Source: Squalus acanthias (Eukaryota). Taken from it: 64,000 nt of DNA. The stretch spans positions 155,994,001-156,058,000 of the forward strand of contig CM059431.1 in the NCBI GenBank assembly GCA_030390025.1, in the 5' to 3' direction. A model generated the notes under the pieces. The model made no database searches, was not told the origin of the DNA, and saw only the letters and a list, made by a program, of their open reading frames with translations. Both the position numbers and the translations under genes were made by a program. Below are positions 1 to 64,000 of this stretch, one piece after another (position 1 is the first letter of the stretch; each line of letters opens with the position of its first letter).

Positions 1-3000
1 GATTACGCAGAGTGTCAGACAACCGTGGGCTACACAGAGTGAAGGAGTACACTGGGCTACACAGATTGTCAGAGTACCCTGGACTACACAGAGTGTCAGA
101 GTAACGTGGGCTACACAGATTATCAGAGGACCCTGGACTAAACAGAGTGTGAGAGTACCCTGGACTACACATAGTGACAGAGAACCCTGGACTAAACAGA
201 GTGTCAGAGAACCCTGGACTACACAGAGTGTTAGAGTATCTTGGACTACACAGAGTGTCAGAGTACCCTGGACTACACAAATTGTTTGAGAACCGTGAGT
301 TACACAGAGTGTCAGAATACATTGGACTACACAGAGTGTCAGAGTAACCTGGACTACACAGAGTGTCAGAGTACCCTGGACTACACAGAGTGTCAGAGTG
401 CCTTGGACTACATGAATGTCAGAGTACCGTGGGCTGCACAGAGTGTCAGATTACCTTGGACTAAACAGTGTCAGAATACCCTGGACTACACAGAGTGTCA
501 GAGTACCGTGGACTAAACAGAGTGTCAGAACACCCAGGACTACACAGAGTGTCAGAGAACCCTGGACTGCACAGAGTGTCAGAGTACACTGGACTACACA
601 GATTGTCAGAATACCGTGGGCTAAATAGAGTGTCAGTGTATCCTGGACTACACAAATTGTCAGAGAACCGTGAGTTACACAGAGTGTCAGAATACATTGG
701 ACTGCACAGAGTGTCAGAGTAACCTGGACTACACAGAGTGTCAGAGTGCCTTGGACTACAATGAGTGTCAGAGTACCGTGGGCTGCACAGAGTGTCACAG
801 TACCTTGGACTAAACAGAGTGTCAGAATACCCTGGACTACAGAGAGTGTCAGAGTTCCGTGGACTAAACAGAGTGTCAGAGTTCCTTGGACTACACAGAT
901 TGTCAGAGAAACGTGGGCGACAAAGAGTGTCAGATTACCCTGGACTACACAAAGTGTCAGAGTACCCTGGACTACACAGAGTGTCAGATTATCCTGGTCT
1001 ACACAGAGTGTCAGAGTGATTTGGAATGCACAGAGTGTCAGAGTAGCTTGGACTGCACAGAGTGTCAGAGTACCGTGGACGAAACAGAGTTTCAGAGTAC
1101 ACTGGACTAAACAGAGTGTCAGAGTACCTTCGACTACACAGAGTGTCAGAGTACCCTGGATTACACAGAGTGTCAGAGTACCGTGGGCTACACAGAGTGA
1201 CAGAGTACCCTGGACTACACAGAGCGTCAGAGTACCGTGGGCTACACAGAGTGACAGAGTACCCTGGACTACACGGAGTGTCAGAGTTCCTTGGACTACA
1301 CAGAGTGTCAGAGTACCGTGGACTACACAGAGTGACAGAGTACCCTGGATTACACGGTGTGTCAGTGTTCCTTGGACTACACAGAGTGTCAGAGTACCTT
1401 GGACTACGCAGACTGTCAGAGAACCGTGGGCTACACAGAGTGACAGAGTACACTGGTCTACACAGAGTGTCAGAGTACCGTGGACTACACAGAGTGACAG
1501 AGTACCGTTGCCCACACAGAGTGACAAGGTACACTGGGCTACACAGATTGTAAGAGTACCCTGGACTAAACAGAGTGACAGAGTGCCGTGGGCTACACAG
1601 AGTTTCAGCGTACCCTGGACAACACAGAGTGTCAGAGTACCGTGGACTAAACAGAGTGTCAGAGTACCCTGGACGACACAGAGTGTCAGAGTGACGTGGG
1701 CTACACAGAGTGTCAGAGTAACTTGGACTACACAGATTGTCAGAGTCCCGTGTGCAACACAGAGTGACAGAGTACCCTGGACTACACGGAGTGTCGGAGT
1801 TCATTCTTCTACACAGATTGTCAGAGTCCCGTGTGCTACACAGAGTGACAGAGTACCCTGGACTACACAGAGTGTCAGAGTAAAGTGGACTAAACAGAGT
1901 GTCAGAGTCCCGTGTGCTACACAGAGAGACAGAGTACCCTGGTCTACACGGAGTGTCGGAGTTCATTCGTCTACACAGAGTGTCAGAGTACCGTGGGCTA
2001 CACAGAGTGACAGGGTCCACTGGGCTACAAAGATTGTAAGAGTACCCTGGACTACACAGAGTGCCAGAGAACCCTGGTCTACACAGAGTGTCAGAGTACC
2101 CTGGACTACACAGAGTGTCCGAGTACCCTGGACTACACAGAGTACCAGAGTACACTGGACTACACACAGTGTCAGTGTACCTTGGACTACACAGAGTCTC
2201 AGAGTACCGTGGTCTACACAGAGTGTCAGAGTACCCTGGACTACACAGAGTGTCCGATGACCCTGGACTAGACAGAGTGTCAGAGTACCCTGGACTACAC
2301 ACAGTGTCAGTGTACCTTGGGCTACACAGAGTGTCAGAGTACCTTGGACGACACAGAGTGTCAGAGTACCGTGGTCGAGAAAAAGTGTGAGAGTACCCTG
2401 GACTACACAGAGTGTCAGAGCACCCTGGACTACACAGAGTGTCAGAGTACCGTGGACTACACAGAGTGTCAGAGTGCCTTGGACTTCACAGAGTGTCAGA
2501 GTACCGTCGACTAAACAGAGTGTCAGAGTACCCTGGACTACACAGAGTTTCAGAGTACCGTGGGATACACAGAGTATCAGAGTACCTTGGACGATACAGA
2601 GTGTCAGAGTAGCCTGGACTACACAGAGTGTCAGAGTACCCTGGAGTACACAGAGTGTCAGAGTACCGTGTGACTACACAGAGTTTCAGTGTACCCTGGA
2701 CTACACAGAGTTTCAGAGTACCCTCTACTACACAGAGTGTCAGATTACATTGGTCTACACATAGTGTCAGTGTACCTGGACTACACACAGTGTCAGAGTA
2801 ACTTAGGCTACACAGAGTCTCAGACTCCCGTGGACTACACAGAGTGTTAGAGTACCCTTTTCTACATAGAGTGTTAGAGTACCTTGGACTACACAGAGTG
2901 CCAGAGTACCGTGGACAACACAGAGTGTCAGAGTAGCTTGGAATACACAGAGTGTCAGAGTACCCTGGACTACACAGAGTGTCAGAGAACCCTGGACTAA

Positions 3001-4291
3001 TCAGAGTGTCAGAGTACCCTGGACAACACAGACTGCCGGAGTACCCTATCAACACAGAGTGGCAGAGTAACCTGGACTACATAGAGTGTCAGAGTGTCTT
3101 GGACTACACAGAGTGTCAGGGTACCCTGGACTGCACAGAGTGTCAGCGTACCATGGACTACACAGAGTGTCAGACTACCCGGGACGACACAGAGTGTCAG
3201 AGTACCCTGGACTACACAGAGTCTCAGAGTACCCTGGACTACACAGAGCGTCAGAGTACCCTGGACTACACAGAGTGTCAGTGTGCCTTGGACTACACAG
3301 AGTGTCAGAGTACCCTGGACTACACAGAGTGCCAGAGAGCCCTGGACTACACAGAGTGTCAGTGTATCCTGGACTATACAGAGTATCAGAGTACCCTGGA
3401 CTACACAGTTGTCAGAGTGCCTTGGACTACACAGAGTGTCAGAGTACCGTGGACTACACAGAGTGTCAGAGTACCCTGGACTACACAGAGTGTCCGAGTA
3501 CCGTGGGCCAAACAGAGTGTCAGAGTAACTTGCACAACACGGAGTGCCAGAGTACCCTGGACTACACAGAGTGCCAGAGTACCGTTTACAACAAAGAGTG
3601 TCAGAGTTACTTGGACTACGCAGAGTGTCAGAGTACCTTGGATTACGCAGAGTGTCAGACAACCGTGGGCTACACAGAGTGAAGGAGTACACTGGGCTAC
3701 ACAGATTGTCAGAGTACCCTGGACTACACAGAGTGTCAGAGTACCGTGGGCTACACAGATTATCAGAGTACCCTGGACGAAACAGAGTGTTAGATTACCT
3801 TGGACTACACAGAGTGTCAGAGTACCGTGAACTACACAGAGTGTCTGAGTACCCTGGACTACACAAAGTGACAGAGTACACTGGGCGACGCAGAGTGTCA
3901 GAGTACCCTGGACTACACACAGTGTCAGAATACCTTGGACTACGCAGAGTGTCAGAGAACCGTGGGCTACACAGAGTGACAGAGTACCGTGGACTACACA
4001 AAGTGTCAGAGTACCTTGGACTACACATAGTGTCAGATTATTCTGGATTACACAGAGTGTCAGGGTACCCTGGTCTACACAGAGTTTCAGAGTACCTTGG
4101 ACTAAACAGAGTGACAGGGTACACTGGGCTACACAGATTGTAAGAGTACCCTGGACTACACAGACTGTCAGAGTACCCTGGACTACAAAGGGTCTCAGAG
4201 TACCCTGGATTACACAGACAGTCAGAGTACCCTGGTCTGCACAGAGTGTCAGAGCACATGGGACTACTCAGAGTGTCAGAGTACCCTGGAC

Positions 4292-7200
4292 TACACAGAG
4301 TGTTAGAGTGCCTTGGACTACACAGAGTGTCAGAGTACCGTGGACTACACAGAGTGTCAGAGTGCCTTGGACTACACAGAGTTTCAGAGTACTGTAAACT
4401 AAACAGAGTGTCAGAGTACCCTTGACTACACAGAGTGTCAGAGTACCGTGGGATACACAGAGTATCAGAGTACCTGGGACTACACAGAGTGTTAGAGTAC
4501 CCTGGACTACACAGAATGTCAGAGTACCCTGGACTACACAGAGTGTCAGAGTACCGTGGGATACACAGAGTATCAGAGTACCTTGGACTGCACAGAGTGT
4601 CAGAGCACTTGGGACTACACAGAGTTTCAGTGTACCCTGGACTACACAGAGTGTCAGAGTAACCTCTACTACACAGAGTGTCAGATTACATTGGACTACA
4701 CATAGTGTCAGTGTACCTGGACTACACAGAGTGTCAGAGTAACTTAGGCTACACAGAGTCTCAGACTACCGTGGACTACACAGAGTGTTAGAGTACCCTT
4801 TTCTGCATAGAGTGCCAGAGTACTTTGGACTACACAGAGTGCCAGAGTACCGTGGACAACACAGAGTGTCAGAGTACCTTGGACTACACAGAGTGTCAGA
4901 GTACCCTGGACTACACAGATTATCAGAGTACCCTGGACTAAACAGAGTGTTAGATTACCTTGGACTGCACAGAGTGTCAGAGTACCGTGGACTACACAGA
5001 GTGTCTGAGTACCCTGGACTACACAAAGTGTCAGAGTACCTTGGACTACGCAGAGTGTCAGAGAACCGTGGGCTACACAGAGTGACAGAGTACCGTGGAC
5101 TACACAAAGTGTCAGAGTACCTTGGACTACACATAGTGTCAGATTATTCTGGATTACACAGAGTGTCAGGGTAACCTGGTCTACACAGAGTGTCAGAGTA
5201 CCTTGGACTAAACAGAGTGACAGGGTACACTGGGCTACACTGATTGTAAGAGTACCCTGGACTACACAGACTGTCAGAGTACCCTGGACTACAAAGAGTG
5301 TCAGAGTACCCTGGATTACACAGACAGTCAGAGTACCCTGGTCTGCACAGAGTGTCAGAGCACATGGAACTACTCAGAGTGTCAGGGTACATTGGACTAC
5401 ACATAGTGTCAGTGTACTCTGGACTACACACAGTGTCAGAGTACCTTAGGCTACACAGAGTCTCAGAGTACCGTGGACTACACAGAGTGTCAGAGTACCT
5501 TGGACTACACAGAGTGTCAGAGTACCTTGGACTACACAGAGTGTCAGAGTACCCTGGACTACACAGAGTGTCAGAGTACCTTGGACTACGCTGAGTGTCA
5601 GAGAACCGTGGCCTACACAGAGTGTCAGAGTACCGTGGGCTTACACAGAGTGTCAGAGTACCTTGGACTATACGGAGTGTCAGAGTACCTTGGACTACAC
5701 AGAGTGTCAGACTACCGTTTACTACAAAGAGTGTCAGAGGACCTTGGACTGCACAGAGTATCACAGTACCGTGGGCTAAACAGAGTGACAGAGTACACTG
5801 GGCTACACAGAGTGTTAGAGTACCCTGGACTACACAGAGTGTCAGAGTACCTTGGACTCCGCAGAGTGTCAGAGAACCGTGGGCTACACAGAGTGACAGT
5901 GTACACTGGGCTACACAGAGTGTCAGAGTATCCTGGTCTACACAGAGTGTCAGATTAACGTGGGCTACACAGAGTATCAGAGTACCCTGGACTAAACAGA
6001 GTGTTAGATTACCTTGGACTACACAGAGTTTCAGAGTACCGTGGACTACACAGAGTGTCTGAGTACCCTGGACTACACAAAGTGTCAGAGTACCTTGGAC
6101 TACATATAGTGTCAGATTATTCTGGATTACACAGAGTGTCAGGGTACCTTGGACTACACAGAGTGACAGGGTACACTGGGCTACACAGATTGTAAGAGTA
6201 CCCTGGACTACACAGATTGTCAGAGTACCCTGGACTACAAAGAGTGTCAGAGTACCCTGGATTAAACAGACAGTCAGAGTACCCTGGTCTGCACAGAGTG
6301 TCAGAGCACATGGGACGACTCAGAGTGTCAGAGTACCCTGGAATACACAGAGTGTTAGAGTGCCTTGGACTACACAGAGTGTCAGAGTACCGTGGACTAC
6401 ACAGAGTGTCAGAGTGCCTTGGACTACACAGAGTTTCAGAGTACTGTAAACTAAACAGAGTGTCAGAGTACCCTGGACTACACAGAGTGTCAGAGTACCG
6501 TGGGATACACAGAGTATCAGAGTACCTGGGACTACACAGAGTGTTAGAGTACCCTGGACTACACAGAATGTCAGAGTACCCTGGACTACACAGAGTGTCA
6601 GAGTACCGTGGGATACACAGAGTATCAGAGTACCTTGGACTGCACAGAGTGTCAGAGCACTTGGGACTACACAGAGTTTCAGTGTACCCTGGACTACACA
6701 GAGTGTCAGAGTAACCTCTACTACACAGAGTGTCAGATTACATTGGACTACACATAGTGTCAGTGTACCTGGACTACACAGAGTGTCAGAGTAACTTAGG
6801 CTACACAGAGTCTCAGACTACCGTGGACTACACAGAGTGTTAGAGTACCCTTTTCTGCATAGAGTGCCAGAGTACTTTGGACTACACAGAGTGCCAGAGT
6901 ACCGTGGACAACACAGAGTGTCAGAGTACCTTGGACTACACAGAGTGTCAGAGTACCCTGGACTACACAGATTATCAGAGTACCCTGGACTAAACAGAGT
7001 GTTAGATTACCTTGGACTGCACAGAGTGTCAGAGTACCGTGGACTACACAGAGTGTCTGAGTACCCTGGACTACACAAAGTGTCAGAGTACCTTGGACTA
7101 CGCAGAGTGTCAGAGAACCGTGGGCTACACAGAGTGACAGAGTACCGTGGACTACACAAAGTGTCAGAGTACCTTGGACTACACATAGTGTCAGATTATT

Positions 7201-8499
7201 CTGGATTACACAGAGTGTCAGGGTAACCTGGTCTACACAGAGTGTCAGAGTACCTTGGACTAAACAGAGTGACAGGGTACACTGGGCTACACTGATTGTA
7301 AGAGTACCCTGGACTACACAGACTGTCAGAGTACCCTGGACTACAAAGAGTGTCAGAGTACCCTGGATTACACAGACAGTCAGAGTACCCTGGTCTGCAC
7401 AGAGTGTCAGAGCACATGGAACTACTCAGAGTGTCAGGGTACATTGGACTACACATAGTGTCAGTGTACTCTGGACTACACACAGTGTCAGAGTACCTTA
7501 GGCTACACAGAGTCTCAGAGTACCGTGGACTACACAGAGTGTCAGAGTACCTTGGACTACACAGAGTGTCAGAGTACCTTGGACTACACAGAGTGTCAGA
7601 GTACCCTGGACTACACAGAGTGTCAGAGTACCTTGGACTACGCTGAGTGTCAGAGAACCGTGGCCTACACAGAGTGTCAGAGTACCGTGGGCTTACACAG
7701 AGTGTCAGAGTACCTTGGACTATACGGAGTGTCAGAGTACCTTGGACTACACAGAGTGTCAGACTACCGTTTACTACAAAGAGTGTCAGAGGACCTTGGA
7801 CTGCACAGAGTATCACAGTACCGTGGGCTAAACAGAGTGACAGAGTACACTGGGCTACACAGAGTGTTAGAGTACCCTGGACTACACAGAGTGTCAGAGT
7901 ACCTTGGACTCCGCAGAGTGTCAGAGAACCGTGGGCTACACAGAGTGACAGTGTACACTGGGCTACACAGAGTGTCAGAGTATCCTGGTCTACACAGAGT
8001 GTCAGATTAACGTGGGCTACACAGAGTATCAGAGTACCCTGGACTAAACAGAGTGTTAGATTACCTTGGACTACACAGAGTTTCAGAGTACCGTGGACTA
8101 CACAGAGTGTCTGAGTACCCTGGACTACACAAAGTGTCAGAGTACCTTGGACTACATATAGTGTCAGATTATTCTGGATTACACAGAGTGTCAGGGTACC
8201 TTGGACTACACAGAGTGACAGGGTACACTGGGCTACACAGATTGTAAGAGTACCCTGGACTACACAGATTGTCAGAGTACCCTGGACTACAAAGAGTGTC
8301 AGAGTACCCTGGATTAAACAGACAGTCAGAGTACCCTGGTCTGCACAGAGTGTCAGAGCACATGGGACGACTCAGAGTGTCAGAGTACCCTGGAATACAC
8401 AGAGTGTTAGAGTGCCTTGGACTACACAGAGTGTCAGAGTACCGTGGACTACACAGAGTGTCAGAGTGCCTTGGACTACACAGAGTTTCAGAGTACTGT
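4292..8499 (+). repeat. Near-identical tandem higher-order duplication, period 2052 bp (76 monomers)
   Basis: Identical ORF pairs at offset 2052 (4785/6837, 5144/7196, 5298/7350, 5473/7525, 5595/7647, 6001/8053). The rare variant ACTGTAAACT occurs at 4391 and 6443. Boundaries approximate. Confidence 0.93.
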
Positions 8500-9269
8500 G
8501 GACTAAACAGAGTGTCAGAGTACCCTGGACTACACAGAGTGCCAGAGTACCGTGGGATACACAGCGTATCAGAGTACCTTGGACTACACAGAGTGTCAGA
8601 GTACCCTGGACTACACAGAGTGTCAGAGTACCCTGGACAACACAGAGTGTCAGAGTACCGTGGGATACACAGAGTATCAGAGTACCTTGGACTGCACAGA
8701 GTGTCAGAGCACATGGGACTACACAGAGTTTCAGTGTACCCTGGACTACACAGAGTGTCAGAGTAACCTCTACTACACAGAGTGTCAGATTACATTGGAC
8801 TACACATAGTGTCAGTGTACCTGGAATACACACAGTGTCAGAGTAATTTAGGCAACACAGAGTCTCAGACTACCGTGGACTACACAGAGTGTTAGAGTAC
8901 CCTTTTCTGCATAGAGTGTCAGAGTACCTTGGACTACACAGAGTGCCAAAGTACCGTGGACAACACAGAGTGTCAGAGTGTCTTGGACTACAGTGAGTGT
9001 CAGGGTACCCTGGACTGCACAGAGTGTCAGCGTACCATTGACTACACAGAGTGTCAGACTACCCTGGACTACACAAAGTGTCAGAGTACTTTGGACTACA
9101 CATAGTGTCAGAGAACCGTGACTAAACAGAGTTTCAGAGTACCTTGGACTACGCAGAGTGTCAGAGAACCGTGGGCTACACAGAGTGTCAGAGTACACTG
9201 GACTACACAGAGTGTCAGAGTACCCTGGACTACACAGAGTGTCAGAGTACCCTGGACTACACAGAGTGT

Positions 9270-10180
9270 CAGGGTGCCTTGGACTATACAGAGTGTCAGA
9301 GTACCCTGGACTACGCAGAGTGCCAGAGAGCCCTGGACCACACAGAGTGTCAGAGTAACCTGAACTACACAGAGCATCAGAGTACCCTGGACTACACAGT
9401 TGTCAGAGTACCCTGGACTACACAGAGTGTCCGAGTACCGTGGACTAAAGAGAGTGTCAGAGTACCTTGCACAACACGTAGTGCCAGAATACCCTGGACT
9501 ACACAGAGTCCCAGAGTACCGTTTACAAGAAAGAGTGGCAGAGGTCCTTGGACTACACAGAATGTCAGAGTACCTTGTATTACGCAGAGTGTCAGACAAC
9601 CGTGGGCTACACAGAGTGAAGGAGTACACTGGGCTACACAGAGTGTCAGAGTACCCTGGACTACACAGAGACTCAGAGTACCCTGGACTACACAGAGTGT
9701 CAGAGTACCCTGGACGACACAGAGTGTCAGAGTACCTTGGACTATACAGAGTGTCAGAGTACCCTGGACTACGCAGAGTGCCAGAGAGCCCTGGACTACA
9801 CAGAGTGTCAGAGTAACCTGAACTACACAGAGCATCAGAGTACCCTGGACTACACAGTTGTCAGAGTGCCTTGGACTACACAGAGTGTCAGAGTACCGTG
9901 GACTACACAGAGTGTCAGAGTACCCTGGACTACACTGAGTGTCCGAGTACCGTGGGCTATAGAGAGTGTCAGAGTACCTTGCACAACACGTAGTGCCAGA
10001 GTACCCTGGACTACACAGAGTCCCAGAGTACCGTTTACAACAAAGAGTGGCAGAGGTCCTTGGACTACACAGAGTGTCAGAGTACCTTGGATTACGCAGA
10101 GTGTCAGACAACCGTGGGCAACAAAGAGTGAAGGAGTACACTGGGCTGCACAGATTGTCAGAGTACCCTGGACTACAAAG
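9270..10180 (+). repeat. Tandem higher-order duplication, period ~458-512 bp
   Basis: Rare variant TGAACTACACAGAGCATCAG at 9361 and 9819 (offset 458). The variants GCACAACACGTAGTGCCAG and GTGAAGGAGTAC are also each repeated. Boundaries approximate. Confidence 0.75.
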
Positions 10181-12871
10181 AGTGTCAGAGTACCGTGGGC
10201 TACACAGATTATCAGAGTACCCTGGACTAAACTGAGTGTTAGATTACCTTGGACTACACAGAGTGTCAGAGTACCGTGGACTACACAGAGTGTCTGAGTA
10301 CCCTGGACTACACAAAGTGACAGAGTACACTGCGCGATACAGAGTGTCAGAGTACCCTGGACTACACACAGTGTCAGAGTACCTTGGACTACGCAGAGTG
10401 TCAGAGAACCGTGGGCTACACAGAGTGACAGAGTACCTTGGACTACACAAAGTGTCAAAGTACCTTGGACTACACATAGTGTCAGATTATTCTGGATTAC
10501 ACAGAGTGTCAGGGTAACCTGGTCTACACAGAGTGTCAGAGTACCTTGGACTAAACAGAGTGACAGGGTACACTGGGCTACACAGATTGTAAGAGTACCC
10601 TGGACTAAACAGACTGTCAGAGTACCCTGGACTACAAAGAGTGTCAGAGTACCCTGGATTACATAGACAGTCAGAGTACCCTGGTCTGCACAGAGTGTCA
10701 GAGCACATGGGACTACTCTGAGTGTCAGTGTATCCTGGACTACACAGAGCTTCAGAGTACCCTCTACTACACAGAGTGTCAGGGTACATTGGACTACACA
10801 TAGTGTCAGTGTACCCTGGACTAAACACAGTGTCAGAGTACCTTAGGCTACACAGAGTCTCAAAGTACCGTGGACTACACAGAGTGTTAGAGTACCCTTG
10901 TCTACATTGAGTGTCAGAGTACCTTGGACTACACAGAGTGCCAGAGTACCGTGGACTACACAGAGTGTTAGAGTACCCTTGTCTACATTGAGTGTCAGAG
11001 TACCTTGGAGTACACAGAGTGTCAGAGTACCTTGGACTACGCAGAGTGTCAGAGTACCTTGGACTACACAGAGTGTCAGAGTACCGTTTACTACAAAGAG
11101 TGTCAGAGGACCTTGGACTACACAGAGTGTCAGAGTACCGTGGACTACACAGAGTGTCAGAGGACCTTGGACAACACAGAGTGTCAGAGTACCCTGGACT
11201 ACACAGAGTGTCAGAGTACGTTGGACTCCGCAGAGTGTCAGAGAACCGTGGGCTACACAGAGTGACAGTGTACACTGGGCTACACAGAGTGTCAGAGTAT
11301 CCTGGTCTACACAGAGTGTCAGATTACCGTGGGCTTCACAGAGTATCAGAGTACCCTGGACTAAACACAGTGTTAGATTAACTTGCACTACACAGAGTGT
11401 CAGAGTACCGTGGGCTGCAAAGAGTGTCAGAGTACCTAGGACTGCACAGAGTGTCAGCGTACCATGGGCTGCACAGAGTGACAGAGTACCCTGGACTAAA
11501 CAGAGTGTCAGAGTACCGTGGGCTCCACAGAGTGTCAGAGTACCTTGGACTACACGGAGTGTCTGAGTACCTTGGACTACACAGAGTGTCAGACTACCGT
11601 TTATTACAAAGAGTGTCAGAGGACCTTGGACTACACAGAGTGTCACAGTACCGTGGGCTAAACAGAGTGACAGAGTACACTGGGCTACACAGAGTGTAAG
11701 AGTACCCTGGAGTACACAGAGTGTCAGAGTACTTTGGACTCCGCAGAGTGTCAGAGAACCGTGGGCTACACAGAGTGACAGTGTACACTGGGCTACACAG
11801 AGTGTCAGAGTATCCTAGTCTACACAGAGTGTCAGATTACCGTGGGCTACACAGAGTATCAGAGTACCCTGGACTAAACACAGTGTTAGAGGAACTTGGA
11901 CTACACAGAGTGTCAGAGTACCGTGGGCTGCAAAGAGTGACAGAGTAACCTGGACTAAACAGAATGTCAGAGTACCTTGGACTACACAGAGTGTCAGACT
12001 ACCCTGGACTACACAGAGTGTCAGTGTACCTTGGACTACACAGATTGTCAGAGAACCGTGGACTACACAGAGTGCCAGAGTACCTTGGACTACGCAGAGT
12101 GTCAGCGAACCGTGCGCGACACAGAGTGTCAGAGTACCTTGGACTACACAGAGTGTCAGAGTATCCTGGACTACACAGAGTGTCAGAGTACCCTGGACTA
12201 CACAGAGTGTCAGAGTACCCTGACTACACAGAGTGTCAGAGTACCCTGGACGACACGGAGTGTCAGAGTACCGTGGGCTGCACAGAGTGACAGACTTCAC
12301 TGGGCTACACAGTGTGTCAGTGTACCCTGGACTACACAGACTGTCAGAGTACCCTGGACTGCACAGAGTGTCAGAATACCCTGGACTACCCAGAGTGTCA
12401 GAGTACCGTGGGCTACACAGAGTGTGAGAGTACCTTGGACTACACGGAGTATCAGAGTACCTTGGACTACACAGAGTTTCAGAGTACCCTCTACTACACA
12501 TTGTGTCAGGGTACATTGGACTAAACATAGTGCCAGTGTACCCTGGACAACACACAGTGTCAGAGTACCTTAGGCTACACAGAGTGTCAGAGTACCGTGG
12601 GCTACACAGAGTGTCAGAGTACCTTGGACTACACGGAGTGTCTGAGTACCTTGGACTACACAGAGTGTCAGACTACCGTTTATTACAAAGAGTGTCAGAG
12701 GACCTTGGACTACACAGAGTGTCACAGTACCGTGGGCAAAACAGAGTGACAGAGTACACTGGGCTACACAGAGTGTAAGAGTACCCTGGAGTACACAGAG
12801 TGTCAGAGTACTTTGGACTCCGCAGAGTGTCAGAGAACCGTCGGCTACACAGAGTGACAGTGTACACTGGG

Positions 12872-12882
12872 CTACACAGAGT
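12872..12882 (+). repeat. Target-site duplication, left copy (CTACACAGAGT)
   Basis: Identical to 13224-13234. The offset to the sister block rises from 1079 bp before the insert (TTATTAC at 11601 vs 12680) to 1431 bp after it (TATCCTAG at 11811 vs 13242). The difference is +352 = 341 insert + 11 duplicated bases. Confidence 0.9.
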
Positions 12883-12919
12883 TGAGAGGTCGCACAACAC
12901 CAGGTTATAGTCCAACAGT

Positions 12920-12925
12920 TTTATT
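12920..12925 (-). promoter_or_regulatory. Putative polyadenylation signal AATAAA with downstream GT-rich tract
   Basis: Plus-strand TTTATT is AATAAA on the minus strand, 5 nt 3' of the hammerhead. It is followed ~17 nt later by TGGTGTTGTGCG. Confidence 0.55.
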
Positions 12926-12930
12926 TGAAA

Positions 12931-12968
12931 TCACAAGCTTTCGGAACTATCGCTCCTTCCTCAGGTGA
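12931..12968 (-). ncRNA. Minimal type I hammerhead ribozyme motif (PLE-type)
   Basis: Minus strand 12968->12931 reads UCAC CUGAGGA A GGAGC GAUA GUUCC GAAA GC UU GUGA. The CUGANGA and GAAA core boxes are present. Stem I is UCAC/GUGA, stem II is GGAGC/GUUCC (one G-U) with a GAUA loop, and stem III is reduced to the palindrome AAGCUU. Predicted cleavage is after CUU, between 12935 and 12934. Confidence 0.8.
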
Positions 12969-12997
12969 AGTAAATTGGATACAGAATCGTCAGAGCA

Positions 12998-13003
12998 TAT
13001 ATA
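12998..13003 (-). promoter_or_regulatory. TATA-like box upstream of the hammerhead
   Basis: TATATA lies ~30 nt 5' (minus strand) of the start of hammerhead stem I, the usual TATA-to-start spacing. The motif is short and the region AT-rich, so it could be chance. Confidence 0.35.
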
Positions 13004-13172
13004 GATGGAAAAAAAAGCATGTGTACTTTACAATTGCAGACCAATAAATTAAATCATCCTGACTATCTGCCGAGGTGTGATAAAGTTAATTAAGTCAGCC
13101 AGGAAGGTACCACATCAAAAGACATAGCAAGATACAACTGAGACAATGAGGTGAAGTCGCAGGGGTTCTAAC

Positions 13173-13223
13173 ACCTCTCAATTTTGTCCACCCCAGTCCA
13201 ACACCGGCATCTCCGCATCATGA
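13173..13223 (+). mobile_element. Putative PLE 3' end and tail in opposite orientation to the rest of the insert
   Basis: Begins with ACCTCTCA, the reverse complement of the first 8 nt of the insert (TGAGAGGT, 12883-12890). It then continues ATTTTGTCCACCCCAGTCCAACACCGGCATCTCCGCATCATGA up to the TSD. Confidence 0.6.
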
Positions 13224-13234
13224 CTACACAGAGT
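13224..13234 (+). repeat. Target-site duplication, right copy (CTACACAGAGT)
   Basis: Identical to 12872-12882. The empty site in sister blocks has this 11-mer only once between GTGTACACTGGG and GTCAGAGTATCCTAGTC. Confidence 0.9.
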
Positions 13235-16200
13235 GTCAGAGTATCCTAGTCTACACAGAGTGTCAGATTACCGTGGGCTACACAGAGTATCAGAGTACCC
13301 TGGACTAAACACAGTGTTAGAGTAACTTGAACTACACAGAGTGTCAGAGTACCGTGGGCTGCAAAGAGTGTCAGAGTACCTAGGACTGCTAGAGTGTCAG
13401 AGTACCATGGGCTGCACAGAGTGACAGAGTAACCTGGACTAAACAGAATGTCAGAGTACCTTGGACTGCACAGAGTGTCAGACTACCCTGGACTACACAG
13501 AGTGTCAGTGTACCTTGGACTACATAGATTGTCAGAGAACCGTGGACTACACAGAGTGCCAGAGTACCTTGGACTACGCAGAGTGTCAGCGAACCGTGCG
13601 CGACACAGAGTGTCAGAGTACCTTGGACTACACAGAGTGTCAGAGTATCCTGGACTACACAGAGTATCAGAGTACCCTGGACTACACAGAGTGTCAGAGT
13701 ACCCTGACTACACAGAGTGTCAGAGTACCCTGGACTACACGGAGTGTCAGAGTACCGTGGGCTGCACAGAGTGACAGACTTCACTGGGCTACACAGTGTG
13801 TCAGTGTACCCTGGACTACACAGAGTGTCAGAGTACCCTGGACTGCACAGAGTGTCAGAATACACTGGACTACCCAGAGTGTCAGAGTACCGTGGGCTAC
13901 ACAGAGTGTGAGAGTACCTTGGACTACACGGAGTGTCAGAGTACCTTGGACTACACAGAGTTTCAGAGTACCCTCTACTACACAGAGTGTCAGGGTACAT
14001 TGGACTAAACAAAGTGCCAGTGTACCCTGGACTACACACAGTGTCAGAGTACCTTAGGCTACACAGAGTCTCAGAGTACCGTGGACTACACAGAGTGTTA
14101 GAGTACCCTTGTCTACATTGAGTGTCAGAGTACCTTGGACTACACAGAGTGCCAGAGTACCGTGGACGACACAGAGTGTCAGAGTACCTTGGACTACACA
14201 GAGTGTCAGAGTACCTTGGACTACACAGAGTGTCAGAGTACCCTGGACTACACAGAGTGTCAGAGTACCTTGGACTACGCAGAGTGTCAGAGAACCGTGG
14301 CCTGCACAGAGTGTCGGAGTACCTTGGACTACACAGAGTGTCAGACTAGCGTTTACTACAAAGAGTGTCAGAGGACCTTGGACTACACTGAGTGTCAGAG
14401 TACCCTGACTACACAGAGTGTCAGAGTACCCTGGACTACACGGAGTGTCAGAGTACCGTGGGCTGTACAGAGTGACAGAGTTCACTGGGCTACACAGAGT
14501 GTAAGAGTACCCTGGTCTACACAGAGTGTCAGATTACCGTGGGCTACACAGAGTATCAGAGTACCCTGGACTAAACACAATGTTAGAGTAACTTGGACTA
14601 CACAGAGTGTCAGAGTACCTTGGACTACACATAGTGTCAGAGAACCGTGACTAAACAGAGTTTCAGAGTACCTTGGACTACGCAGAGTGTCAGAGTACCG
14701 TGGGCTGCAAAGAGTGTCAGAGTACCTAGGACTGAACAGAGTGTCAGAGAACCATGGGCTGCACAGAGTGACAGAGTACCCTGGACTAAACAGAGTGTCA
14801 GAGTACCGTGGGCTACACGGAGTGTCAGAGTACCTTGGACTACACAGAGTGTCAGACTACCGTTTACTACAAAGAGTGTCAGAGGACCTTGGACAACACA
14901 GAGTGTCACAGTACCGTGGGCTAAACAGAGTGACAGAGTACACTGGGCTACACAGAGTGTAAGAGTACACTGGACTGCACAGAGTGTCAGAGTACCTTGG
15001 ACTTCGCAGAGTGTCAGAGAACCGTGGGCTACACAGAGTGACAGTGTACACTGGGCTACACAGAGTGTCAGAGTATCCTGGTCTACACAGAGTGTCAGAT
15101 TACCGTGGGCTACACAGAGTATCAGAGTACCCTGTACTAAACACAGTGTTAGAGTAACTTGGACTACACAGAGTGTCAGACTACCGTGGGCTGCACAGAG
15201 TGACAGAGTAACCTGGACTAAACAGAATGTCAGAGTACCTTGGACTACACAGAGTGTCAGACTACCCTGGACTACACAGAGTGTCAGTGTACCTTGGACT
15301 ACACAGATTGTCAGAGAACCGTGGACTACACAAAGTGTCAGTGTACCTTGGACTACGCAGAGTGTCAGCGAACCGTGGGCTACACAGAGTGTCAGAGTAT
15401 CCTGGACTACACATAGTGCCAGTGTACCCTGGACTACACACAGTGTCAGAGTACCCTGAATACACAGAGTGTCAGAGAACCCTGGACTACACGGAGTGTC
15501 AGAGCACCGTGGGCTGCACAGAGTGCCAGAGTACCGTGGACTGCAAAGAATGTCAGAGTACCCTGGACTGCACAGAGTGTCAGAATACCCTGGACTACCC
15601 AGAGTGTAGAGTACCGTGGGCTACACAGAGTATCAGAGTACCTTGGACTACACGGAGTGTCAGAGTACCTTGGACTACACAGACTGTCAGAGTACCCTGG
15701 ACTACAAAGAGTGTCAGAGTACCCTGGATTACACAGACAGTCAGAGTACCCTGGTCTGCACAGAGTGTCAGAGCACATGGGACTACTCAGAGTGTCAGTG
15801 TACCCTGGACTACACAGAGTTTCAGAGTACCCTCTACTACACAGAGTGTCAGGGTACATTCGACTACACGTAGTGCCAGTGTACCCTGGACTACACACAG
15901 TGTCAGAGTACCTTAGGCTAAACAGAGTCTCAGAGTACCGTGGACTACACAGAGTGTCATACTACCGTTTACTACAAACAGTGTCAGAGGACCTTGGACT
16001 ACACAGAGTGTCAGAGTACCCTGGACTACACAGAGTGTCAGAGTACCTTGGACTCCGCAGAGTGTCAGAGAACCGTGGGCTACACAGAGTGACAGTGTAC
16101 ACTGGGCTACACAGAGTGTCAGAGTATCCTGGTCTACACAGAGTGTCAGATTACCGTGGGCTACACAGAGTATCAGAGTACCCTGGACTAAACACAGTGT

Positions 16201-16789
16201 TAGAGTATCTTGCACTGCACAGAGTGTCAGAGTACCGTGGGCTGCAAAGAGTGTCAGAGTACCTAGGACTGCACAGAGTGTCAGCGTACCATGGGCTGCA
16301 CAGAGTGACAGAATACCCTGGACTAAACAGAGTGTCAGAGTACCGTGGGCTACACAGAGTGTCAGAGTACCTTGGACTACACGGAGTGTCTGAGTACCTT
16401 GGACTACACAGAGTGTCAGACTACCGTTTACTACAAAGAGTGTCAGAGGACCTTGGACTACACAGAGTGTCACAGTACCGTGGGCTAAACAGAGTGACAG
16501 AGTACACTGGGCTACACAGAGTGTAAGAGTACCCTGGACTACACAGAGTGTCAGAGTACTTTGGACTCCGCAGAGTGTCAGAGAACCGTGGGCTACACAG
16601 AGTGACAGTGTACACTGGGCTACACAGAGTGTCAGAGTATCCTAGTCTACACAGAGTGTCAGATTACCGTGGGCTACACAGAGTATCAGAGTACCCTGGA
16701 CTAAACACAGTGTTAGAGTAACTTGGACTACACAGAGTGTCAGAGTACCGTGGGCTGCAAAGAGTGCCAGAGTACCTAGGACTGCTAGA

Positions 16790-19700
16790 GTGTCAGAGTA
16801 CCATGGGCTGCACAGAGTGACAGAGTAACCTGGACTAAACAGAATGTCAGAGTACCTTGGACTACACAGAATGTCAGACTACCCTGGACTACACAGAGTG
16901 TCAGTGTACCTTGAACTACACAGATTGTCAGAGAACCGTGGACTACACAGAGTGCCAGAGTACCTTGGACTACGCAGAGTGTCAGCGAACCGTGCGCGAC
17001 ACAGAGTGTCAGAGTACCTTGGACTACACAGAGTTTCAGAGTATCCTGGACTACACAGAGTGTCAGAGTACCCTGGACTACACAGAGTGTCAGAGTACCC
17101 TGACTACACAGATTGTCAGAGTACCCTGGACTACACGGAGTGTCAGAGTACCGTGGGCTGCACAGAGTGACAGACTTCACTGGGCTACACAGTGTGTCAG
17201 TGTACCCTGGACTACACAGAGTGTCAGAGTACATTGGACGACACAGAGTGCCAGAGTACCGTGGACTACACAGAATGTCAGAATACCATGGACTACCCAG
17301 AGTGTCAGAGTACCGTGGGCTACACAGAGTGTCAGACTACCTTGGACTACACGGAGTGTCAGAGTACCTTGGACTACACAGAGTTTCAGAGTACCCTCTA
17401 CTACACAGAGTGTCAGGGTACATTGGACCATACATAGTGCCAGTGTACCCTGGACTACACACAGTGTCAGAGTACCTTAGGCTACACAGAGTCTCAGAGT
17501 ACCGTGGACTACACAGAGTGTCAGAGTACCTTGGACTACACAGAGTGTCAGAGTACCTTGGACTACACAGAGTGTCAGAGTACCCTGGACTACACAGAGT
17601 GTCAGAGTACCTTGGACTACGCAGAGTGTCAGAGAACCGTGGCCTACACAGAGTGTCGGAGTACCTTGGACTACACAGAGTGTCAGACTACCGTTTACTA
17701 CAAAGAGTGTCAGAGGACCGTGGACTACACTGAGTGTCAGAGTACCCTGACTACACAGAGTGTCAGAGTACCCTGGACTACACGGAGTGTCAGAGTACCG
17801 TGGGCTGCACAGAGTGACAGAGTTCACTGGGCTACACAGAGTGTAAGAGTACCCTGGTCTACACAGAGTGTCAGATTACCGTGGGCTACACAGAGTTTCA
17901 GAGTACCCTGGACTAAACACAGTGTTAGAGTAACTTGGACTACACAGAGTGTCAGAGTACCTTGGACTACACATAGTGTCAAAGAACCGTGACTAAACAG
18001 AGTTTCAGAGTACCTTGGACTACGCAGAGTGTCAGAGAACCGTGGGCTACACAGAGTGTCAGAGTACCCTGGACTACACAGAGTGTCAGTGTACCCTGAC
18101 TACACAGAGTGTCAGAGTACCCTGGACTACACGGAGTGTCAGAGTACCGTGGGCTGCTCAGAGTGACAGAGTTCACTGGGCTGCACAGAGTGTCAGTGTA
18201 CCCTGGACTACACAGAGTGTCAGAGTACCTTGGACGACACAGAGTGCCAGAGTACCGTGGACTACACAGATTGTCAGAGTACCCTGGACTGCACAGAGTG
18301 TCAGAATACCCTGGACTACCCAGAGTTTCAGAGTACCGTGGGCTAAACAGAGTGTCAGAGTACCTTGGACTACACGGAGTGTCAGAGTACCTTGGACTAC
18401 ACAGAGGGTCAGAGTACCGTTTACTAAAAAGAGTGTCAGAGGACCTTGAACTACACAGAGTGTCAGAGTACCGTGGGCTACACAGAGTGACAGAGTACAC
18501 TGGGCTACACAGAGTGTCAGAGTACCTTGGACTACGCAGAGTGTCAGAGAACCGTGGGCTACACAGAGTGACAGTGTACACTGGGCTACACATAGTGTCA
18601 GAGTATCCTGGACTACACAGAGTTTCAGAGTAGCGTGGGCTACACAGAGTATCAGAGTACCCTGGACTAAACACAGTGTTAGAGTACCTTGGACTACACA
18701 GAGTGTCAGACTACCCTGGTCTACACAGAGTCTCAGAGTACCTTGTACTACATAGAGTGTCAGAGAACCGTGGACTACACAGAGTGTCAGAGTACCTTGG
18801 ACTTACCAGAGTGTCAGCGAACCGTGGGCTACACAGAGTGACAGAATGCACTAGGCTACACAGAGTGTCAGAGTATCCTGGACTACACAGAGTGTCAGAG
18901 TACTCTGGACTACACAGAGTTTCAGAGTACCCTGGACGACTCAGAGCGTCAAAGTACCCTGGACTACAAAGAGTGTCAGAGTACCCTGGACTAAACAGAG
19001 TGTCAGAGTGCCTTGGGCTACACAGAGTGTCAGAGTACCGTGGACTACACAGAGTGTCAGAGTACCCTGGACTACACAGAGTGTCAGAGTACCTTGGACA
19101 ACGCAGAGTGTCAGAGTACCGTTTACTGCAAAGAGTGTCAGAGGACATTGGACAACACAGAGTGTCAGAGTAACGTGGGCTACACAGATTGACAGAGTAC
19201 ACTGGGCTACACAGAGTGTCAGAGTACCCTGTACTACACAGAGTGTCAGAGTACCTTGACTACACAGAGAGTCAGAGTACCATGGGCTGCACAGAGTGAC
19301 AGAGTAACCTGGACTAAACAGAATGTCAGAGTACCTTGGACTACACAGAATGTCAGACTACCCTGGACTACACAGAGTGTCAGTGTACCTTGAACTACAC
19401 AAATTGTCAGAGAACCGTGGACTACACAGAGTGCCAGAGTACCTTGGACTACGCAGAGTGTCAGCGAACCGTGCGCGACACAGAGTGTCAGAGTACCTTG
19501 GACTACACAGAGTGTCAGAGTATCCTGGACTACACAGAGTGTCAGAGTACCCTGGACTACACAGAGTGTCAGAGTACCCTGACTACACAGATTGTCAGAG
19601 TACCCTGGACTACACGGAGTGTCAGAGTACCGTGGGCTGCACAGAGTGACAGACTTCACTGGGCTACACAGTGTGTCAGTGTACCCTGGACTACACAGAG

Positions 19701-21870
19701 TGTCAGAGTACATTGGACGACACAGAGTGCCAGAGTACCGTGGACTACACAGAATGTCAGAGTACCCTGGACTGCACAGAGTGTCAGAATACCATGGACT
19801 ACCCAGAGTGTCAGAGTACCGTGGGCTACACAGAGTGTCAGAGTACCTTGGACTACACGGAGTGTCAGAGTACCTTGGACTACACAGAGTTTCAGAGTAC
19901 CCTCTACTACACAGAGTGTCAGGGTACATTGGACCATACATAGTGCCAGTGTACCCTGGACTACACACAGTGTCAGAGTACCTTAGGCTACACAGAGTCT
20001 CAGAGTACCGTGGACTACACAGAGTGTTAGAGTACCCTTGTCTACATTGAGTGTCAGAGTACCTTGGACTACACAGAGTGCCAGAGTACCGTGGACTACA
20101 CAGAGTGTCAGAGTACCTTGGACTACACAGAGTGTCAGAGTACCTTGGACTACACAGAGTGTCAGAGTACCCTGGACTACACAGAGTGTCAGAGTACCTT
20201 GGACTACGCAGAGTGTCAGAGAACCGTGGCCTACACAGAGTGTCGGAGTACCTTGGACTACACAGAGTGTCAGACTACCGTTTACTACAAAGAGTGTCAG
20301 AGGACCTTGGACTACACTGAGTGTCAGAGTACCCTGACTACACAGAGTGTCAGAGTACCCTGGACTACACGGAGTGTCAGAGTACCGTGGGCTGCACAGA
20401 GTGACAGAGTTCACTGGGCTACACAGAGTGTAAGAGTACCCTGGTCTACACAGAGTGTCAGATTACCGTGGGCTACACAGAGTATCAGAGTACCCTGGAC
20501 TAAACACAGTGTTAGAGTAACTTGGACTACACAGAGTGTCAGAGTACCTTGGACTACACATAGTGTCAGAGAACCGTGACTAAACAGATTTTCAGAGTAC
20601 CTTGGACTACGCAGAGTGTCAGAGAACCGTGGGCTACACAGAGTGTCAGAGTACCCTGGACTACACAGAGTGTCAGTGTACCCTGACTACACAGAGTGTC
20701 AGAGTACCCTTGACTACACGGAGTGTCAGAGTACATTGGGCTGCTCAGAGTGACAGAGTTCACTGGGCTGCACAGAGTGTCAGTGTACCCTGGACTACAC
20801 AGAGTGTCAGAGTACCTTGGACGACACAGAGTGCCAGAGTACCGTGGACTACACAGAATGTCAGAGTACCCTGGACTGCACAGAGTGTCAGAATACCCTG
20901 GACTACCCAGAGTTTCAGAGTACCGTGGGCTACACAGAGTGTCAGAGTACCTTGGACTACACGGAGTGTCAGAGTACCTTGGACTACACAGAGGGTCAGA
21001 GTACCGTTTACTAAAAAGAGTGTCAGAGGACCTTGTACTACACAGAGTGTCAGAGTACCGTGGGCTACACAGAGTGACAGAGTACACTGGGCTACACAGA
21101 GTGTCAGAGTACCTTGGACTACGCAGATTGTCAGAGAACCGTGGGCTACACAGAGTGACAGTGTACACTGGGCTACACCTAGTGTCAGAGTATCCTGGAC
21201 TACACAGAGTTTCAGAGTAGCGTGGGCTACACAGAGTATCAGAGTACCCTGGACTAAACACAGTGTTAGAGTACCTTGGACTACACAGAGTGTCAGACTA
21301 CCCTGGACTACACAGAGTCTCAGAGTACCTTGGACTACATAGAGTGTCAGAGAACCGTGGACTACACAGAGTGTCAGAGTACCTTGGACTTACCAGAGTG
21401 TCAGCGAACCGTGGGCTACACAGAGTGACAGAATGCACTAGGCTACACAGAGTGTCAGAGTACCCTGGACTACACAGAGTGTCAGAGTACTCTGGACTAC
21501 ACAGAGTTTCAGAGTACCCTGGACGACTCAGAGCGTCAAAGTACCCTGGACTACAAAGAGTGTCAGAGTACCCTGGACTAAACAGAGTGTCAGAGTGCCT
21601 TGGGCTACACAGAGTGTCAGAGTACCGTGGACTACACAGAGTGTCAGAGTACCCTGGACTACACAGAGTGTCAGAGTACCGTGGACTACACAGAGTGTCA
21701 GAGTACCTTGGACTACGCAGAGTGTCAGAGTACCGTTTACTGCAAAGAGTGTCAGAGGACATTGGACAACACAGAGTGTCAGAGTAACGTGGGCTACACA
21801 GATTGACAGAGTACACTGGGCTACACAGAGTGTCAGAGTACCCTGTACTACACAGAGTGTCAGAGTACCT
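16790..21870 (+). repeat. Tandem higher-order duplication, period ~2.48-2.59 kb
   Basis: ORF pairs 16844/19323 (offset 2479) and 18676/21263, 18015/20602 (offset 2587). The change in offset is 108 bp = 4 monomers. Boundaries approximate. Confidence 0.8.
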
Positions 21871-21900
21871 TGACTACACAGAGAGTCAGAGTAACTTGGA

Positions 21901-24900
21901 CTACACAGATTGTCAGAGAACCGTGGACTAAACAGAGTGTCATAGTACCTTGGACTACGCAGAGTGTCAGAGTACCGTGGGCTACACTGAGTGACAGAGG
22001 ACACTGGGCCAAACAGAGTGTCAGCGTACCCTAAAATACACAGAGTGTCAAAGTACCGTGTGCTACACAGATTGACAGAGGACACTGGGCTACACAGAGT
22101 GTCGGAGTAGCCTGGACTACACAGAGTGTCAGGGAACCGTGGACTAAACAGAGTGTCAGAGTACCCTGGACTACACATAGTGCCAGTGTACCCTGGACTA
22201 CACACAGTGTCAGAGTACCCTGAATACACAGAGTGTCAGAGAACCCTGGACTACACGGAGTGTCAGAGTACCGTGGGCTGCACAGAGTGCCAGAGTACCG
22301 TGGACTACAAAGAATGTCAGAGTACCCTGGACTGCACAGAGTGTCAGAATACCCTGGACTACCCAGAGTGTAGAGTACCGTGGGCTACACAGAGTATCAG
22401 AGTACCTTGGACTACACGGAGTGTCAGAGTACCTTGGACTACACAGACTGTCAGAGTACCCTGGACTACAAAGAGAGTCAGAGTACCCTGGATTACACAG
22501 ACAGTCAGAGTACCCTGGTCTGCACAGAGTGTCAGAGCACATGGGACTACTCAGAGTGTCAGTGTACCCTGGACTACACAGAGTTTCAGAGTACCCTCTA
22601 CTACACAGAGTGTCAGGGTACATTCGACTACACGTAGTGCCAGTGTACCCTGGACTACACACAGTGTCAGAGTACCTTAGGCTAAACAGAGTCTCAGAGT
22701 ACCGTGGACTACACAGAGTGTCATACTACCGTTTACTACAAACAGTGTCAGAGGACCTTGGACTACACAGAGTGTCAGAGTACCCTGGACTACACAGAGT
22801 GTCAGAGTACCTTGGACTCCGCAGAGTGTCAGAGAACCGTGGGCTACACAGAGTGACTTTGTACACTGGGCTACACAGAGTGTCAGAGTATCCTGGTCTA
22901 CACAGAGTGTCAGATTACCGTGGGCTACACAGAGTATCAGAGTACCCTGGACTAAACACAGTGTTAGAGTATCTTGCACTGCACAGAGTGTCAGAGTACC
23001 GTGGGCTGCAAAGAGTGTCAGAGTACCTAGGACTGCACAGAGTGTCAGCGTACCATGGGCTGCACAGAGTGACAGAATACCCTGGACTAAACAGAGTGTC
23101 AGAGTACCGTGGGCTACACAGAGTGTCAGAGTACCTTGGACTACACGGAGTGTCTGAGTACCTTGGACTACACAGAGTGTCAGACTACCGTTTACTACAA
23201 AGAGTGTCAGAGGACCTTGGACTACACAGAGTGTCACAGTACCGTGGGCTAAACAGAGTGACAGAGTACACTGGGCTACACAGAGTGTAAGAGTACCCTG
23301 GACTACACAGAGTGTCAGAGTACATTGGACTCTGCAGAGTGTCAGAGAACCGTGGGCTACACAGAGTGACAGTGTACACTGGGCTACACAGAGTGTCAGA
23401 GTATCCTAGTCTACACAGAGTGTCAGATTACCGTGGGCTACACAGAGTATCAGAGTACCCTGGACTAAACACAGTGTTAGAGTAACTTGGACTACACAGA
23501 GTGTCAGAGTACCGTGGGCTGCAAAGAGTGCCAGAGTACCTAGGACTGCTAGAGTGTCAGAGTACCATGGGCTGCACAGAGTGACAGAGTAACCTGGACT
23601 AAACAGAATGTCAGAGTACCTTGGACTACACAGAATGTCAGACTACCCTGGACTACACAGAGTGTCAGTGTACCTTGAACTACACAGATTGTCAGAGAAC
23701 CGTGGACTACACAGAGTGCCAGAGTACCTTGGACTACGCAGAGTGTCAGCGAACCGTGCGCGACACAGAGTGTCAGAGTACCTTGGACTACACAGAGTGT
23801 CAGAGTATCCTGGACTACACAGAGTGTCAGAGTACCCTGGACTACACAGAGTGTCAGAGTACCCTGACTACACAGAGTGTCAGAGTACCCTGGACTACAC
23901 GGAGTGTCAAAGTACCGTGGGCTGCACAGAGTGACAGACTTCACTGGGCTACACAGTGTGTCAGTGTACCCTGGACTACACAGAGTGTCAGAGTACATTG
24001 GACGACACAGAGTGCCAGAGTACCGTGGACTACACAGAATGTCAGAGTACCCTGGACTGCACAGAATGTCAGAATACCATGGACTACCCAGAGTGTCAGA
24101 GTACCGTGGGCTACACAGAGTGTCAGAGTACCTTGGACTACACGGAGTGTCAGAGTACCTTGGACTACACAGAGTTTCAGAGTACCCTCTACTACACAGA
24201 GTGTCAGGGTACATTGGACCATACATACTGCCAGTGTACCCTGGACAACACACAGTGTCAGAGTACCTTAGGCTACACAGAGTCTCAGAGTACCGTGGAC
24301 TACACAGAGTGTTAGAGTACCCTTGTCTACATTGAGTGTCAGAGTACCTTGGACTACACAGAGTGCCAGAGTACCGTGGACTACACAGAGTGTCAGAGTA
24401 CCTTGGACTACACAGAGTGTCAGAGTACCCTGGACTACACAGAGTGTCAGAGTACCTTGGACTACGCAGAGTGTCAGAGAACCGTGGCCTACACAGAGTG
24501 TCGGAGTACCTTGGACTACACAGAGTGTCAGACTACCGTTTACTACAAAGAGTGTCAGAGGACCTTGGACTACACTGAGTGTCAGAGTACCCTGACTACA
24601 CAGAGTGTCAGAGTACCCTGGACTACACGGAGTGTCAGAGTACCGTGGGCTGCACAGAGTGACAGAGTTCACTGGGCTACACAGAGTGTAAGAGTACCCT
24701 GGTCTACACAGAGTGTCAGATTACCGTGGGCTACACAGAGTATCAGAGTACCCTGGACTAAACACAGTGTTAGAGTAACTTGGACTACACAGAGTGTCAG
24801 AGTACCTTGGACTACACAAAGTGTCAGAGAACCGTGACTAAACAGAGTTTCAGAGTACCTTGGACTACGCAGAGTGTCAGAGAACCGTGGGCTACACAGA

Positions 24901-43000: not shown

Positions 43001-43169
43001 TCAGAGTACCGTTTACTACAAAGAGTGTCAGAGTAACTTGGACTACACAGAGTGTCAGAGTAATCTGGACTACACAAAGTGTCAGAGTACCCTGGACTAC
43101 ACAGAGTGACAGAGTACCTTGGACTACACAGAGTGTCAGAGTACCGTGAACTAAACAGAGTGACAGAGT

Positions 43170-63600: not shown

Positions 63601-64000
63601 CTGGACTACACAGAGTGTCAGTGTACCCTGGACTGCACAGAGTGTCAGAGTAACCTGGACTACACAGAGTGTCAGCGTACCATGGACTGCACAGAGTGTC
63701 AGACTACCCTGGACTGCACACAGTGTCAGAGTACCTTGGACGACACAGAGTGTCAGAGTACCGTGGGCTGCACAGAGTGACAGAGTACACTGGGCTACAC
63801 AGAGTGTCAGGGTAACCTGGACTACAAAGAGTGTCAGCGTACCATGGACTACACAGAGTGTCAGACTACCCTGGACTACACAGTGTGTCAGAGTACCTTG
63901 GACTACACAGAGTGTCAGAGTAACCTGGACGACACAGAGTGTCAGAGTACCGTTGACTACAAAGAGTGTCAGAGGACCTTGGAGTAAACAGTCTGTCAGA

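Follow-up and report, generated by a model that had tools for sequence, protein, structure and literature searches.

Penelope-like elements (PLEs) typically combine a tail of 30–40 bp with an adjacent inverted 5′-truncated copy and a hammerhead motif in the pLTR (PMC8557442). In rotifers, a Penelope copy was described with an inverted pLTR that overlaps the direct one by 15 bp, a 31-bp tail and a target-site duplication (TSD) of 9 bp, within a range of 8–10 bp (PMC3846280). The anole Poseidon protein (PAc, Anolis carolinensis) was shown in vitro to cut and extend both target strands, with two internal start sites bounding the tail (PMC11167929). Minimal hammerheads (min-HHR) have been described in the pLTRs of metazoan PLEs (PMC4209133), and a type I hammerhead is also found in non-LTR retrozymes, which are PLE-related (bioRxiv 10.64898/2026.07.22.740005).

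The window examined here, meaning the whole 64,000-nucleotide stretch of Squalus acanthias DNA that was analyzed, consists of a 27-bp satellite array with a single insert. We assign this insert, with a probability of about 0.9, to a recent single retrotransposition of an endonuclease-bearing PLE, 5′-truncated, into one satellite monomer. The traits found are a predicted hammerhead motif, a 40-bp tail between two termini, an inverted 5′-truncated copy and a short TSD with no poly(A) end. The family may resemble the Neptune-type repeats of cartilaginous fishes; RT phylogeny and a CX2-5CxxC linker ahead of the GIY-YIG domain set Neptune apart from the Penelope/Poseidon clade. This anatomy (inverted 5′-truncated copy, tail and pLTR hammerhead) is already published for PLEs, and the insert is one more truncated copy of an abundant family. 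The initial annotation located the insert correctly but missed its Penelope-like identity, the internal inversion, the hammerhead and the tail.

Boundaries, anatomy and predicted hammerhead of the insert

The insert had been described as 341 bp lying between two copies of CTACACAGAGT, and these coordinates were exact. It spans 12883–13223, the two copies are 352 bp apart and the duplication extends in neither direction (Table 1). Since this 11-mer occurs 1068 times in the window, its identity alone is uninformative. When 352 bp were taken out, however, both flanks fell on one ungapped diagonal with positions 11803, 16630, 23394 and 28381, with 8, 5, 7 and 6 mismatches, respectively, over 300 bp. 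On the diagonal with 11803 (offset 1079), 3 mismatches were counted in the left 304 bp and 3 in the right 144 bp. The TSD is real because the flanks rejoin the sister blocks in this way, and the earlier argument from a 352-bp step in the offset was borne out with all four sisters.

Table 1. Coordinates of the insert, its host array and the empty sister targets in the window.
Feature	Position	Strand	Remarks
27-bp satellite array, host of the insert	4..64000	+	2372.6 copies, 81% matches (Tandem Repeats Finder)
Left TSD copy CTACACAGAGT	12872..12882	+	last T also fits the element
Inverted 5′-truncated piece of the element 3′ end/pLTR, 290 bp	12883..13172	-	family-wide terminus at its left end
Minimal type I hammerhead motif	12931..12968	-	descriptor match
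Internal inversion junction	13172..13173	.	contigs of the family have loose ends at 13172 and 13173
9-bp overlap, repeats the element sequence of 12882-12890 (opposite strand)	13173..13181	+	
40-bp tail, 62.5% A+C, between two family-wide termini	13182..13221	+	contig loose ends
GA past the usual family end	13222..13223	+	probably element sequence; ATG at 13220-13222
Right TSD copy CTACACAGAGT	13224..13234	+	first CT probably fits the element too
Empty target, nearest sister block	11793..11803	+	6 differences from the host in 440 bp
Empty target, downstream clade	16620..16630	+	sister comparison
Empty target, downstream clade	23384..23394	+	sister comparison
Empty target, downstream clade	28371..28381	+	sister comparison

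Because the bases shared by duplicate and element may belong to either (Table 1), the strictly target-only duplication is 8–11 bp long, with 1–3 bases of the TSD possibly encoded by the element. At the right end, the host monomer and all four sisters have GG where the insert ends in GA, so that the GA is probably element-derived. Six contigs of one public run (X7, see below) match through 13225 and then diverge, a slight hint that the first two bases of the right duplicate still belong to the element. Less likely is a TSD of 13 bp in which GG later became GA; in favor of this reading, GA is the commonest state in the satellite (618 versus 271).

Within the insert, the inverted piece is joined to a forward piece of 51 bp that contains the tail. 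The left outer end lies at a family terminus and the right one 2 bases past it. At the internal junction neither microhomology nor an exact palindrome was found, the longest arm being 3 bp. Both copies of the 9-bp overlap carry the same variant base, which fits one template; contigs with the alternative versus this base numbered 75 versus 22 in X1, 30 versus 13 in X5 and 17 versus 21 in X7. Endonuclease-bearing PLEs are defined by a single ORF with a telomerase-like RT and a GIY-YIG endonuclease; six-frame translation of the insert found coding sequence for neither, which counts against the assignment. In PLEs the pLTR/tail overlaps the ORF start, and the insert has an ATG with A at −3 at a distance of 91 nt from the predicted hammerhead cut. 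The insert has no terminal poly(A) or simple-repeat tail and no terminal run of A or T; its only A run of at least 5 is an internal A8.

With the rotifer element Pen2a_Av and its relatives (PMC3846280) the insert shares an inverted 5′-truncated copy next to a direct piece, a short overlap (9 bp here, 15 bp in Pen2a_Av), a tail at one end (40 bp here, 31 bp there) and a TSD of similar size (11 bp here, 8–10 bp there). The direct piece here, however, is only 51 bp long, with no ORF, the junction shows no palindrome and the target is a 27-bp satellite. The resemblance to PAc concerns the start sites, of which that element likewise has two internal ones; they enclose a tail rich in A and C and lie about 90 nt from the site of hammerhead cleavage. 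The distance from the cut to the tail end is 93 nt here, compared with a PAc start region at 85–92 nt by subtraction from the published text (PMC11167929). The PAc ORF starts inside the hammerhead, whereas here no ATG follows the hammerhead before the end of the tail. According to the same source, PAc prefers 5′-ATT-3′ in AT-rich DNA and primes without homology; the present target has a GC content of about 50% and is able to base-pair with the template.

The hammerhead motif was predicted with a self-made descriptor for a minimal type I pattern. The descriptor matched one site in the 64-kb window and none of 20,000 dinucleotide shuffles of the insert. The predicted motif comprises helix I (UCAC/GUGA), the core CUGAGGA (C3 at 12964), an extra A, helix II (GGAGC-GAUA-GUUCC) and GAAA, while a palindromic AGCU replaces helix III. 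Cleavage is predicted after U17 (12935). Relatives differ in N7 and loop II but retain the core and helix II (contig loose ends behind 12945). Nevertheless, several observations speak against the motif or fail to single it out. U is the last base of the cleavage triplet. A family variant at 12932, which makes up 16% of the summed depth in X1, would disrupt one pair of helix I, and no compensating change is listed. Free folding scored no better than shuffled sequence (z 0.30 and −1.17), and none of four folds picked out the hammerhead or the tail region (z from −1.17 to 1.28). Rfam gave no hammerhead match on the insert; its only match, snoZ43 (E = 8), was rejected as chance.

As described in PMC4209133, the min-HHR shares with this motif a 4-bp helix I, an extra base between 9 and 10.1, the G10.1–C11.1 pair and a palindrome (15.2–16.2) in place of helix III, and it too can be found singly in a truncated copy. 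It differs in helix II, which is 5 bp here and 7–8 bp in the Schistosoma families, and in the U at position 17 here; the motif here is a predicted one. Non-LTR retrozymes are likewise short PLE-related units that code for no protein, are of similar length and contain a type I hammerhead, but they form tandem arrays with at least two hammerhead units, whereas one motif lies in an inverted stump here and the surrounding satellite has none (bioRxiv 10.64898/2026.07.22.740005). Assignment as a retrozyme was rejected on the single descriptor site in the whole window. PLE hammerheads cleave themselves as dimers or with the help of protein. With no protein encoded and a lone hammerhead lacking helix III, the copy itself is most likely inert.

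The element family in public contigs

At least half of the insert's sampled words were present in 17 of the 24 runs listed, which come from five coded organisms together with unlabelled runs. Four of them (X1, X5, X7 and X8) were aligned to 12843–13263, with 11,849 (X1), 7,757, 2,013 and 3 (X8) contigs matched. Summed contig depth was not taken as copy number, X5 was read only in part and X7 may be RNA. The insert had been called the only unique anchor in the window. This holds for its junctions; the insert itself is high-copy, as the X1 contigs show, and only the junctions are unique because it belongs to such a family. None of the 27 contigs listed, beyond which there are 22,055 more, bridges the junctions of this copy. 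DNA pattern scans for relatives gave 0 matches in metagenome, genome and viral contigs, and two further scan matches (L001 and L002) of only 27 and 21 bp were rejected as chance.

Two family-wide ends were detected as loose ends with unrelated flanks. One lies at 12883 (77 X5 contigs, agreement 0.42) and the other at 13221 (67 X5 and 19 X7 contigs). The native element is continuous from 12883 to 13181, positions that lie on opposite strands of the insert, and this joint was seen in X1, X5 and X7. Other copies continue past 13172 with one common sequence (X1, X7 and X8; agreement 0.97–1.0).

At least nine other inverted-plus-tail junctions were found, each with a shorter inverted piece (ending at 12903–12972) and a forward piece (starting at about 13173–13187). 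They comprise seven of the 15 joints listed in one table and two from another, which hold 37 and 52 further joints, and the joints of other copies have short sides of 21–26 letters with a likeness of 85. The variable truncation of these nine junctions suggests that the inversion is made anew at insertion.

The shares of variants differ between two DNA samples of organism A (X1 versus X5), with about 51 versus 90% of summed depth at 12990, 48 versus 14% at 13027 and 35 versus 1% at 13117. These differences may reflect subfamily structure, or only the summing of contigs and the partial reading of X5. Run X8, from organism B, contains only 3 matching contigs and lacks the high-copy ends, and its 194-bp contig is identical to the insert. 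This contig may stem from traces of organism A DNA and not from a family that organism B has itself.

The host array, the empty sister sites and the age of the insertion

The array is a patchwork of duplicated segments of 0.8–3 kb each at about 1–3% divergence. The 31 segment pairs listed show 1.1–3.3% divergence at offsets of 1378–16740 and do not form one regular higher-order repeat. The GC content is about 50% in the array and 41.6% in the insert. A scan of the whole window for stretches of singleton 12-mers showed one long interruption, at 12875–13231; the insert is the only non-satellite stretch longer than 41 bp. Three other singleton runs of 33–41 bp (1345–1377, 3022–3062 and 62743–62778) are strongly diverged monomers. 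The identical stretches at 48767–48884 and 52732–52849, assigned a period of 19 by Tandem Repeats Finder, were on reading a local run of near-identical 27-bp monomers, duplicated at an offset of 3965. The satellite also contains 13 open frames of at least 450 codons (455–1248 codons) on both strands, for example 38503–42249 on the minus strand. Coding by the satellite was rejected, because the 27-bp unit has few stops and long stop-free frames are its by-product. A literature text search with a 16-letter satellite motif and with motifs of the insert gave no match.

The uninterrupted context reported at 11781, 16608, 23372 and 28359 was found at exactly these positions. Four empty sites are thus present, but they are not four independent witnesses. 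The host block and the 11803 block differ at 6 of 440 bases and have in common 2 derived alleles, both to the left of the insert. Over the same 440 bp, 1–2 bases distinguish the three downstream sisters from one another and 6–8 distinguish them from the host. The four sites are accordingly read as two lineages, with 16608, 23372 and 28359 as one clade that would have branched before the host and 11781 blocks split. By parsimony, the insertion would be later than the split of host and 11803, and only the empty site at 11781 dates it; the downstream three add nothing to the dating. The block common to host and 11803 is only about 450 bp long, and gene conversion could blur this order. The proposal that the element arrived after the block with the CCTAGTC variant had arisen is in keeping with this comparison. 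So is the view that the insert has not been copied within the window, as BLAST found no match to it in the rest of the 64 kb.

Family contigs were listed with six substitution sites and one deletion, and at none of these was the letter of the insert absent from the family. Sites near contig ends are missing from this listing, so that the result is that no private change was seen, not proof that there is none. The largest share of another letter was that at 12990, in both X5 and X1. The 194-bp contig of X8 agrees with the insert at all 194 positions of 12960–13153. With no private substitution seen and only 6 differences in 440 bp between the host block and the closest sister, the sequence supports a young insertion, as had been proposed.

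The best runs held 0.87 (X1–X4, which are one sample) and 0.84 (X5) of 31 sampled insert words, i.e. 4–5 words were missing. Of the sampled words, 3.0 are expected to span the private inversion junction, which no listed contig bridges. Absence of the insert from those samples would agree with this, but the missing words were not named, contigs cannot show absence, and organism A may differ from the species of the window, so that the shortfall was not counted as evidence for polymorphism.

Proposed mechanism of insertion and meaning for the family

The structure suggests an insertion in which both target strands were nicked and both used as primers. An RT/GIY-YIG protein from a full-length copy elsewhere would have nicked the two strands at sites no more than 11 bp from each other. 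Reverse transcription from the bottom-strand end would then have begun at the tail end and stopped after about 51 nt, while that from the top-strand end would have begun about 40 nt upstream, at the second start site, and run for about 290 nt. The two cDNA ends would have been joined without homology and then filled in. The activities needed for these steps are those described for the anole Poseidon protein (PMC11167929). Such a process would be twin priming in the style of L1, but at two fixed internal start sites, and we consider it rather likely.

With the PLE origin unchanged, the inversion could instead have arisen by fold-back self-priming on the antisense template, as was proposed for palindromic inverted junctions of rotifer Penelopes (PMC3846280), and a 9-bp overlap does exist between the two pieces. 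Fold-back predicts a palindrome at the junction, where the longest exact arm is 3 bp, and the overlap sits instead where the tail starts and at the left outer end of the insert. Furthermore, both outer ends are family termini that match the two RT start sites shown in vitro (PMC11167929). Fold-back is therefore regarded as unlikely.

We give somewhat less weight still to a unit of inverted piece plus tail that was pre-formed elsewhere and moved whole, either in trans from a non-autonomous master or as a DNA patch in break repair. Sequences flanked by pLTRs can be mobilized in trans by the PLE machinery (PMC3846280), and the 194-bp X8 contig is identical to the inner part of the insert. However, the nine other junctions all differ from that at 13172/13173, and among thousands of family contigs no listed one bridges it. 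The outer ends at family termini and the clean duplication are not what a random DNA patch would give.

Outside the PLEs, the origins considered were a SINE and a LINE 3′ stub, inverted by twin priming of the L1 type. Non-LTR insertions are of similar length, with similar duplication sizes and 5′ inversion, and these features fit the insert. ARAGORN nevertheless found 0 tRNA genes in it, there is no B box and no poly(A) or simple-repeat end, and the one A-box-like match lies on the strand opposite the hammerhead. L1 inversions show variable internal priming, unlike the fixed left terminus seen here in 77 contigs. As this origin also leaves the hammerhead and the 40-bp tail unexplained, it is very improbable. 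Least credible of all is an assembly chimera in which a repeat fragment was stitched into the satellite: no listed contig spans the junctions, but a misjoin would have no reason to place both ends at biological family termini, to create an exact duplication and to leave flanks that rejoin the sisters on one diagonal.

The near-identical empty sister sites in the same array mean that the pre-insertion target is known base by base. The end of the top strand pairs 7 nt in a row (5 Watson–Crick and 2 G:U) with element RNA just past the second start site. A pairing of 7 nt is reached by 2101 of 127,266 satellite positions (1.65%), essentially in one monomer phase. The bottom-strand end probably pairs over at least 2 nt at the tail end, and the copy extends 2 nt beyond the usual terminus, as though its end had moved to allow this pairing. 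Tentatively, the PLE family might prime both target strands by RNA base-pairing at two fixed start sites, with short complementarity picking the pair of nicks and thereby setting TSD length. This pairing is a lead and not a result, because it comes from a single insertion, includes G:U pairs and was recognized only post hoc.

If true, the proposal would qualify the in vitro report of PLE priming without homology (PMC11167929) and would make the 27-bp satellite a preferred, phase-specific target. TSDs are often indiscernible in Naiad and Chlamys elements (PMC8557442). Base-by-base knowledge of the target is rare for PLEs that favor repeats, and the locus offers a clean data point for how tail and inversion are formed. 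The junctions of the insert provide a marker for ordering the duplications of the array and, if polymorphic, for tracking array haplotypes.
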